This document shows positions 44,786-47,700 of a DNA stretch of 64,000 bases, piece after piece. Source of the stretch: Chrysomallon squamiferum (Eukaryota > Animalia > Mollusca); assembly GCA_012295275.1 (NCBI GenBank), contig CM022679.1, forward strand, positions 28,644,001-28,708,000, given 5' to 3'. The notes below the pieces were generated by a model, which did no database searches, had not been told where the DNA came from, and saw only the letters and a program-made list of their open reading frames with translations. The translations under genes were made by a program, and so were the position numbers. Each line of letters opens with the position of its first letter. The stretch's first letter is position 1.

Positions 44786-47700
44786 TTAAGGATATGAGTA
44801 ATCAGTTCGTTTTCCTGCAATGCAGAACAGAAGAGAATTAAATAAAACAAATTAATAAAAAATATTCAAATCATAAACAAAACAATTAGAAATATCACAT
44901 TACAAATCTCTCGCTCTCTCTTTCTGTGTACCAAAGTTTGTGTTCTTTCTCACTCCATTTCGAACTTCTATATATTTACCACTATATACATAACCGTATG
45001 TTATTATTATTATTATTATTATTATTATTCTTGTTGTTGTTGTTCTTGTTGTTATTATTATAACATAAATAAACATACATTATTTAAAGAGATTGAGAGA
45101 GAGAGCGAGAGACAGATAAAGAGAGAGAGACAGAGACAGACAGACAGACAGAGAGAAACAGAGAGAGAGATACAGAGACAGAGAGACAGACAGAGAGAGA
45201 GACAGAGCCAGAGAGATGTTTACAAGATTCCAATGTTACAGTAAACTAGTTACTTACTTCCCAGAGGGAGGCTCGTTCTGTAAAATATGAAAATATTCAA
45301 ATAAAGAACAACAGGTATAATATTATCTTAGAAAGCTCTCTCTCTCTCTCTCTCTCTCTCTCTCTCTCTCTCTCTCTCTCTCTCTCTCTCTCTCTCTCTC
45401 TCTCTCTCTCTCTCTCTCTCTCTCTCTCTCTCTCTCTCTCTCTGTCTTTTTCAGTCGTTCTCAAACGAACTAAAATTTGTTACCTAACTGATATAAACTG
45501 GTGAAAACTACGATTTCAGTTCGTGCCAATTCCAAGAGAGATACGTTTAACTATGTACAGAGAGAGAGAGAGAGAGAGAGAGAGAGAGAGAGAGAGAGAG
45601 AGAGAGAGAGAGAGAGAGAGACAGAGAGAGAGAGAGAGAGAGAGAGAGAGAGAGAGAGAGAGAGAGAGAGAGAGAGAGAGAGAGAGAGAGAGAGAGAGAG
45701 AGAGAGAGAGAGAGAGAGAGAGAGAGAGAGAGAAAGAGAGAGAGAGAGAGAGAGAGAGAGAGAGAGAGAGAGAGACAGACAGACAGAGAGAGAGAGAGAG
45801 AGAGATAGAGAGAAAGAGAGAGAGTGAGAGAGAGAGAGAGAGAGAGAGAGAGAGAGAGAGAGAGAGAGAGAGAGAGAGTCAGAGAGAGAGAGAGAGAGAG
45901 AGAGAGAGAGAGAGAGAGAGAGAGAGAGAGAGAGAGAGAGAGAGAGAGAGAGATGTTTACAAGATTACTCTGTTACAGAAATCTATTTACTTACTTCCTT
46001 CAGGGAGGTCTCGTTCTGTAAATACGAAAATAATCAAATAAAGAACAATATGGATCGTATTATCTTAGAAAACTGTGATACGTTAACTATCTGATAAAAA
46101 CTAGTGTAAAGAATGATCTTAGTTGAAGAAGCATACAGAGAGAGAGACAACAGCGAGTCAGAGAGAGAGACAAAGACAGAGAGAGCGACAGAGAGAGAGA
46201 GAGAGAGAGAGAGAGAGAGAGAGAGAGAGAGAGAGAGAGAGAGAGAGAGAGAGAGAGAGAGAGAGAGAGAGAGAGAGAGAGAGAGACAGAGAGAGAGATT
46301 TACTAGATTTACTTGATTACACTGATACAGAAAATTTTTCACTTACTTCCAAGAGGGAGGTCTCGATCTATGAAATCTGAAAATATTCAAATCATAAACA
46401 AGATAAATAGTGAGGTCATCTCTCTCTCTCTCTGTCTCTCTCTCTCTCTCTCTCTCTCTCTCTCTCTCTCTCTCTCTCTCTGTCTGTATGTCTCTGTGTG
46501 TGTGTGTATATATGTGTGTTAACTAATATAAACTGATTATAAATGGTTTTATTTCAATGACAGATAATTTTAAATATGTCTGAGTTATATCACACTTTCA
46601 ATATCACAAATATCAGGTTGCAGCAGGCAGAACTTACACATCAAAACAAATACATAAATATATTTTCATTTCGTAGATATTAATATCTAACCTAAGCAAG
46701 CATATTTCAATAAGAGAGAGATACTAGCTTATACTTACATTCTGTTCTAGTATAAAGAGAAAGTGCTTTATCTGTAAAATATGAAAATATTCAAACTGTA
46801 AAGAAGATAAATAACAATGTCATATCAGAAATAGCTCTCTCTCTCTCTCTCTCTCTTTCTCTCTCTCTCTCTCTCTCTCTCTCTATCTCTCTCTCTCTAG
46901 ACAGATAGATAGATGGATGGATGAATAGATAGATAGATAGATAGACAGAGAGATAGATAGATAGATAGATAGATAGATAGATAGATAGATAGATAGATAG
47001 ATAAGAAACTTACTCGTAATGTAGGCCTTTGCATATCCACCACAGTTCCTGAAAAATATTTTAAAATGTCTATATATATATATATATATATATATATAAC
47101 ACTTACTTAAGTTGAAACAAAAAGGCATATCAAATTTTCTACTGATTTGATTTCACAAATAAAGTAATATACTGTAATTATCTAACCAGTTTTTCGAATA
47201 ACTCACTTACTTAATAAATCTAGAAGACACACATAAGTAATATTTTAATTTTTATAAAAATATAGATATAAAAGTAGTTTAGATCAGGATGATGGATCAC
47301 AAAAATAGCACAGGTATATTTAAATTATATGTTTTGTTTAATTTAAGTAAAAGGAAGATTATCATTTGAGAGTGAGTACTGTGCTGTATGGTTAAGAGCT
47401 ATAACATTGTTAACTAACTCCACATGAAACGATTATTATCTAAATATTAAGTATTGTCCTGTCTTCTGACCATCTTAAATGTGTAGCTTGATATTAATTC
47501 GGATATCTGTTTTCTATAAACTAACACCAGCCTTCTCGTTTTTAAAATGAGTTAACAATTCAGAAAACATCTTATCCTTCCGTTCAGTGAGTTAAAATTT
47601 CGATGCCTCTTATTGAAATAATTCAAAACATCTTTTTTTTTTTTTTTTTTTTTTATTTTATTTTTTTTTTTTTGCTGTTGCTGTAGTCTCCTGGCTTCGC

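Follow-up and report, generated by a model that had tools for sequence, protein, structure and literature searches.

The window analysed here, a 64-kb stretch of AT-rich, microsatellite-laden animal DNA, carries three paralogous genes that we designate A, B and C. The micro-exons that a preliminary description had placed between opposing (GA)n and (CT)n tracts are part of gene A, a minus-strand gene (47982 to 44786) whose exon structure is predicted. Near gene A lies a homolog of USH1G/SANS, for which a protein search gives Gigantopelta aegis as the best named match (82% identity), with 55% identity to Patella and 53% to Lottia, and the window presumably comes from a gastropod related to G. 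aegis, a vent snail. The features of gene A, in order of transcription, and of this neighbour are:

48289..48370, minus strand: candidate 5′ untranslated exon of gene A with a GTAAGT donor at its 3′ end, 82% like 48692-48773 of paralog B
47915..47982, minus strand: coding part of the start exon, ending in phase 2, with a hydrophobic, signal-peptide-like N-terminus (by inspection)
47828..47857, minus strand: E3, 30 nt, phase 2-2, similar in length and in its 3′ half to the 30-nt exon of paralog C
47014..47048, minus strand: E4, 35 nt, phase 2 to 1, with a homologous 35-nt exon in paralog C
46739..46771, minus strand: E5, 33 nt, phase 1-1, ending in T, with the acceptor module common to its sisters and a different peptide
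46347..46367, minus strand: E6, 21-nt micro-exon, phase 1-1, translated as R-D-L-P-L-G
45995..46015, minus strand: E7, 21-nt micro-exon, phase 1-1, translated as R-D-L-P-E-G, with no GA tract upstream
45258..45277, minus strand: E8, 20-nt micro-exon, one base below its sisters, with intact splice sites, whose inclusion would shift the last-exon frame
44786..44814, minus strand: coding part of E9, the last exon, in the phase-1 frame as in paralog C, with the stop at 44788-44786
41527-41363 and 28629-27340, minus strand: two matched exons of the USH1G/SANS-like gene, with ankyrin repeats and a SAM domain (protein matches)

The micro-exons have canonical AG/GTAAGT splice sites on the minus strand, and the acceptor of E3 is uncertain, with alternative AG dinucleotides at -15 and -24. 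In the acceptor region of E6 (46368-46400, minus strand), changes particular to that copy give rise to another in-frame AG, 9 nt upstream, and a small hairpin is predicted over the 3′ splice site.

The micro-exon copies keep 16-19 of their 20-21 bases, with the changes clustered in one codon. Their predicted translation in E6, E7 and the micro-exon of paralog B is a repeated unit, R-D-L-P-x-G, which ends in a C-terminal Gly and to which the exon joins add a basic residue. In standard prohormone processing, such units between basic residues would yield short amidated peptides, and multi-copy neuropeptide precursors typically combine a signal peptide with repeated units, dibasic cleavage and Gly amidation sites. 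The predicted translation of gene A resembles these precursors in its signal-like start and in its short repeated units, each with Lys-Arg at its borders and Gly at its end. It differs from them in that the D-L-P-x unit matched no named peptide in a literature search, whose sole hit was unrelated, and in that paralog C is without such a unit. All three paralogs have a hydrophobic N-terminus, as judged by inspection only, and a Pfam search of the two start exons returned no match. Gene A likely encodes a secreted peptide precursor, and our literature search found no description of the family formed by A, B and C.

All tract and exon positions reported previously are present in the sequence to within 1-2 nt, and the strand reading given with them, whereby GA lies upstream and CU downstream in the pre-mRNA, is right. 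The tracts and the spacer of the duplicated module, again in order of transcription, are:

46835..46898, minus strand: GA1, a 64-nt (GA)n tract in the pre-mRNA, 63 nt above E5
46420..46481, minus strand: GA2, a 62-nt (GA)n tract, 52 nt above E6
46136..46298, minus strand: CU1, a (CU)n tract near-perfect over 46190-46298, 48 nt below E6
46076..46135, minus strand: intron spacer, part of the duplicated module, homologous to the spacers of intron 7 and paralog B
45560..45953, minus strand: CU2, a 394-nt (CU)n tract, 41 nt below the E7 donor
45336..45443, minus strand: GA3, a perfect 108-nt (GA)n tract, 58 nt above E8
45095..45216, minus strand: CU3, a degenerate (CU)n tract, 84% pure, with a longest perfect run of 10 nt, 41 nt below E8

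The proposal that the micro-exons sit between opposing tracts holds for two of the four, E6 and E8, which have long tracts on both sides. It does not hold for E7, which has CU on both sides and no GA upstream, or for E5, downstream of which there are only about four CT units. The duplicated unit had been put at about 120 bp and is in fact longer, as the intron middles align too. Specifically, the middles of introns 6 and 7 align with each other at z 10.8 (alignment against 200 shuffles) and with paralog B at z 11.9 and 10.7, respectively. The intron 5 spacer aligns weakly (z 6.0, though one of 200 shuffles scored higher), and homology is absent between the tail after CU3 and the spacers (z -0.9 and 0.8) and between the part before GA1 and introns 5-7 (z -0.1 to 2.0). 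The blastn match between E7 and E8 starts at a tract end and runs for 121 bp at 84%. On these alignments, homology between the modules covers acceptor, exon, donor and spacer and stops at the tracts.

Where a tract is present, its position is constant, with GA 52-63 nt above the acceptor and CT 41-48 nt below the donor, paralog B included. The presence of tracts is nevertheless erratic across modules, with lengths from 0 to 394 nt. Module homology that ends at the tracts fits the earlier suggestion that the tracts drive unequal crossover and thereby add exons; it does not prove repeat-assisted duplication, because alignments tend to break at repeats anyway. Of the three ideas put forward in the preliminary description, tract-mediated exon addition is the one best supported by these sequence comparisons. 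Two further module-like sequences lie on the minus strand, namely a degenerate (GA)n-plus-acceptor-like module at 44859-44935, above the last exon of gene A, and an orphan copy of the same kind at 57389-57527, in which the AG is missing at the usual place.

Paralog B (~48700-50860, plus strand) is a head-to-head inverted copy of gene A. The inverted duplication spans 47102-49864 at 70-84% identity with its centre near 48530, and the 485 nt between the candidate 5′ exons of A and B form a degenerate palindrome. Two features of paralog B bear on the relationship between tracts and exons:

50063..50421, plus strand: tract pair at the position of the E5 module, consisting of (GA)n, 71 nt and (CT)n, with no recognisable exon between; the E5 unit is without a match here
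50833..50853, plus strand: micro-exon encoding R-D-L-P-D-G, with six GA units upstream and the CT tract absent downstream

The sequence on one side of the tract pair is homologous to the beginning of intron 4 of gene A, and that on the other side to intron 5. In paralog B, the donor that follows the start exon is not GT, and a search of the window for a homolog of the last exon found none. Paralog C (53729-55400, plus strand) has four coding exons that give an open 61-residue frame, including the matching 30- and 35-nt exons. It contains no peptide micro-exon or D-L-P-x unit, and its coding introns are without a long GA/CT tract. Paralog C is likely the simple form of the family.

Opposing tracts are concentrated at this locus. 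Of the 20 GA/CT tracts of at least 30 nt in the window, six fall in these 1.8 kb and 14 in the other 62.2 kb, which makes tracts about 15 times as dense here as elsewhere in the window. Three GA..CT pairs lie within 150 nt, compared with a mean of 0.21 in 20,000 random placements (P 0.0007 if the pairs are independent), a null built on one 64-kb window. Outside the locus, only 71 of 60,686 positions lie within such a pair. The conserved USH1G-like gene has a 12.7-kb first intron with three long GA/CT tracts that include both orientations, the opposing ones being separated by 1.3 and 5.8 kb. The preliminary description would have been contradicted by opposing tracts that are equally common at random positions; they are not equally common there, and the pattern is not random. 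However, at least one close GA..CT pair arises by chance in 0.17-0.19 of random placements, and three pairs at matching positions in a duplicated module amount to about one origin, for which the chance is ~0.19.

Folding of the minus-strand pre-mRNA, by equilibrium prediction without proteins or editing, agrees with the earlier expectation that GA and CU tracts pair in competing registers: long duplexes are strongly predicted, and GA2 alternates between partners. In the minimum-energy fold of 47100-44750, CU2 and GA3 form 108 base pairs inside intron 7, GA1 and CU2 form 62 base pairs that enclose E5-E7, and GA2 and CU1 form 61 base pairs that enclose E6. Among 500 sampled structures of 46960-45040, the GA1:CU2 and CU2:GA3 duplexes occur in all 500 and GA3:CU3 in none, whereas GA2 pairs with CU1 in 292 and with CU2 in 208, the latter pairing enclosing both E6 and E7. 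The E6 hairpin, with its 120-nt loop, has a predicted energy of -153.6 kcal/mol (z -6.44 against 100 shuffles). On these models it is very likely that the duplexes can form.

The same predictions do not bear out the proposal of a separate loop for each peptide exon. Only E6 is predicted in a loop of its own, and GA3 pairs within intron 7 in 500 of 500 samples. Forcing GA3 to pair downstream costs 59 kcal/mol; GA3 prefers CU2 over CU3 because CU3 is degenerate while CU2 is long and made first. When CU2 is shortened in the model, the predicted pairing registers change, in favour of a role for tract length, and at 80 nt or less GA1 shifts to CU3 and places E8 inside a large loop. A local E8 loop is predicted at none of the nine CU2 lengths modelled.

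What would the skipping of individual micro-exons do to the product? Among the 16 skip combinations of E5-E8, all four in which E5 is kept and E6 dropped yield an immediate stop codon: the final T of E5 then meets the AA or GA with which the later exons open. Only E6 opens with AT, which avoids a stop after E5. Thus, looping out E6 would give a truncated product rather than one peptide fewer. In the six combinations that retain E8 and meet no earlier stop, the last exon is read in another frame; when E8 is skipped, gene A is an open 78-residue frame. The phase-1 frame of the last exon is likely ancestral, to judge from the sequences, because paralog C uses phase 1 and a copy ~90% identical has a stop-to-stop change. 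The frame-breaking E8 is therefore the very exon that stays exposed in the predicted fold; this speaks against a tuned switch and lends some weight to decay.

The unusual length of E8 does not seem to be peculiar to one assembly. A contig from sequencing run X1, the only one there, matches the E8 unit (45207-45343) with 0 differences and 0 gaps, and in a nearby 572-nt contig X1 differs from the window by 7 letters and 1 gap. An assembly error is an unlikely cause of the 20-nt E8, although X1 and the source of the window may not be independent. A contig of ~90% identity, found in runs X1 and X2, has TGA instead of TAA at the gene A stop codon. Over 44341-44952, X1 carries two versions of the last-exon region, ~99% and ~90% like the window, and by its sequence the ~90% version may represent a further paralog or a divergent haplotype outside the window.

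A search of sequencing runs listed no RNA run as carrying the sequence: one run of unspecified kind contained 0.43 of its words, and three RNA runs contained 0.01. In these RNA runs, at that 0.01 of words, no contig is spliced at the last-exon acceptor and none lies on E8, which has no bearing on expression. The single RNA-run contig over the last exon is unspliced through the acceptor and carries the letters of the variant copy. Separately, metagenome contigs scanned for the pattern yielded a single match (L001), which we attribute to chance; it lies within a continuous stretch in which no flanking repeats or module homology could be seen by eye.

Taken as a whole, we lean toward an explanation in which the opposing tracts are inherited parts of one ancestral, tandem-duplicated exon module and their pairing is a tolerated by-product rather than a selected switch, which we hold to be slightly better than an even bet. 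The ancestral module would have comprised (GA)n, an acceptor region of ~55 nt, a phase-1 micro-exon, a donor region of ~45 nt, (CT)n and a spacer. Misaligned recombination between tracts of the same direction may then have added module copies, after which each tract would have grown, shrunk or decayed independently to between 0 and 394 nt. Each intact 21-nt exon would add a D-L-P-x-G unit between basic residues and hence, presumably, a short amidated peptide. In the pre-mRNA, duplexes of 60-108 base pairs are predicted, of which one would enclose E5-E7 in a loop and another would span intron 7; these may disturb splicing as a side effect. That the tracts were inherited with the module, and that their pairing is incidental, is suggested by paralog B, whose sequence appears to hold both a GA..CT pair without an exon and a micro-exon without a downstream CT tract, and by predicted registers that do not single out exons. 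Also in its favour are the matching tract positions in all modules, the fact that one close pair is expected in 17-19% of random placements, the immediate stop when E6 is skipped with E5 kept, and the opposing tracts in the first intron of the USH1G-like gene. On the other side, both tracts are long in several copies, which neutrality does not require, and the modelled E6 hairpin is so stable that an effect on splicing is likely, selected or not.

The main alternative of a functional kind is that GA:CU duplexes loop out exons under selection, with tract length tuning the number of peptide copies in the mRNA. Such a switch would make use of the 120-nt loop that holds E6, closed by ~61 base pairs, of the GA1:CU2 duplex that encloses E5-E7 in 500 of 500 samples, and of the alternation of GA2 (292 versus 208). 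It could also draw on the modelled move of GA1 to CU3, enclosing E8, when CU2 is 80 nt or less, and on the fact that E5-E7 are all of phase 1-1, with lengths divisible by three; inverted repeats that loop out exons are, moreover, an established mechanism according to the available text of PMC7404189. We nevertheless judge it unlikely, given that E8 occupies a local loop of its own in 0 of 500 samples and at 0 of nine CU2 lengths, that skipping E6 with E5 kept leads to a stop, that a dominant fold governing splicing would leave no intact peptide exon, and that paralog B has a pair without an exon and an exon without a pair. A bolder version, in which the GA/CU duplexes act as a length-tunable splicing dial while the same repeats add exon copies, set the number of D-L-P-x peptides per allele and hide the frame-breaking copy, strikes us as quite unlikely. 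Alternatively, gene A might be under relaxed selection or becoming a pseudogene, such that the tracts expand freely and pairing is inconsequential. The frame-breaking E8, which retains strong splice sites and is not confined to the assembly of the window, points in this direction, as do the non-GT donor of paralog B and the failure to find its last-exon homolog. This reading is also unlikely in view of the open 78-residue frame formed when E8 is skipped, the first two letters of E6 that avoid a stop after E5, the 16-19 of 20-21 bases kept by the micro-exons with changes clustered in one codon, and the related copy in X1 and X2 that retains a stop at the same codon.

Pairing might instead act within introns, with donor-side CU and acceptor-side GA in the same intron helping to join neighbouring micro-exons. 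Intron 7 is suited to this role: the distance from donor to CU is 41 nt and that from GA to acceptor 58 nt, and all samples show the two tracts paired over 108 base pairs; introns 5 and 8 show a weak form of that order, and, in the available portion of PMC4691745, the mechanism is demonstrated in zebrafish. However, long pure tracts occur at both ends in one of the five introns from E4 to E9, a bridge in intron 7 would favour the frame-breaking E8, and the acceptors here retain a U-rich tract that, in the same portion of that paper, 61% of the fish introns are without. We consider intron bridging very unlikely as the explanation of the tracts. Highly improbable, finally, is an effect through protein alone, in which CU tracts bind polypyrimidine-binding protein and affect inclusion without RNA pairing. 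CU is about threefold more abundant than GA in the pre-mRNA, so much CU is left unpaired, and the available text of PMC7404189 describes PTBP1 as binding YUCY and able to loop exons; the GA tracts are left unexplained. Inheritance of the tracts with a duplicated module, with pairing as its by-product, remains the account that we prefer.

Complementary dinucleotide repeats near splice sites are known from the (AC)m-(GT)n introns of teleost fish (Lin et al. 2016, PMC4691745). As far as the available text of that study goes, AC/GT pairs occur in excess across introns and seldom across exons, and the structured introns carry AC upstream and GT downstream and are spliced independently of U2AF2. Gene A resembles this system in having complementary repeats near splice sites and long duplexes, here predicted, and one of its five introns, intron 7, has the end-to-end repeat geometry described for the fish. 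It differs in that the repeats are CU/GA, the animal is a mollusc, and a single locus rather than a genome-wide class is involved; in addition, the tracts alternate and so also face each other across exons, and the acceptors keep their U-rich tract. No paper describing such a role for GA/CT pairs emerged from our literature search, and the supplements of PMC4691745, apart from one file outside the search, held only construct sequences when searched for such pairs.

Complementary intronic repeats have also been suggested to act on human alternative exons (Lian and Garner 2005, cited in PMC10027321). According to the accessible parts of PMC10027321 and PMC7404189, paired intronic repeats join distant sites or loop an exon out, which is the mechanism that the preliminary description had envisaged for gene A. 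Here, complementary repeats lie on both sides of E6 and E8, two of the four micro-exons, and a local exon-enclosing duplex is preferred for E6 in 292 of 500 samples and for E8 in 0 of 500 (equilibrium model only). Unlike in those systems, so far as they are described there, the repeats of gene A accompany tandem duplicated micro-exons, and exon skipping is hypothesised. An exon-looping switch at gene A would be a variation on repeat-pairing mechanisms that are already known.

Inverted repeats on both sides of an exon also occur at loci that undergo back-splicing, where short intronic repeats of at least 30-40 nt drive the process (Liang and Wilusz 2014, PMC4201285). The enclosed exons here total 21-75 nt, whereas the smallest circle in the available text of that study is 360 nt, and given such tiny exons an exon-only circular RNA from gene A is unlikely. 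In overall design, gene A also recalls the micro-exon genes of Schistosoma (MEG), which in the available part of PMC10526429 combine an N-terminal signal peptide with 10-20 very short exons whose lengths are mostly divisible by three. In gene A, very short exons follow a putative, signal-like start, and the paralogs are clustered as in MEG. Gene A has only six internal exons, of 30, 35, 33, 21, 21 and 20 nt, two of which are not multiples of three; its peptide units lie between basic residues, it belongs to a free-living gastropod, and the likeness is one of design only.

If the pairing is a by-product, then the locus offers a clear small example of microsatellites edging duplicated exon modules in a peptide gene family. 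If pairing steers splicing, it would instead provide a compact natural test of whether variation in the length of complementary microsatellites tunes exon choice, and would extend the fish AC/GT mechanism to GA/CT repeats in a mollusc.

Several other features of the window were observed in the course of this work. Two candidate coding exons on the plus strand (59100-59260 and 59920-60110) presumably resemble a fucolectin or F5/8 type C domain, a likeness that a Pfam scan of 59719-60180 did not confirm. A tandem array at 19714-20306 (plus strand) is built of a 105-nt unit that consists of (CA)n and a conserved core of ~43 nt with an AG and, 17 nt later, a GT; it may be either an ordinary minisatellite or a further array of micro-exons. 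The sequence at 44190-44410 is a dispersed repeat, represented by many divergent contigs from all four runs, RNA runs included, that continue into dissimilar sequence. Two copies of a dispersed element (52390-52500 and 60420-60540) each adjoin, by eye, a long (CT)n tract.
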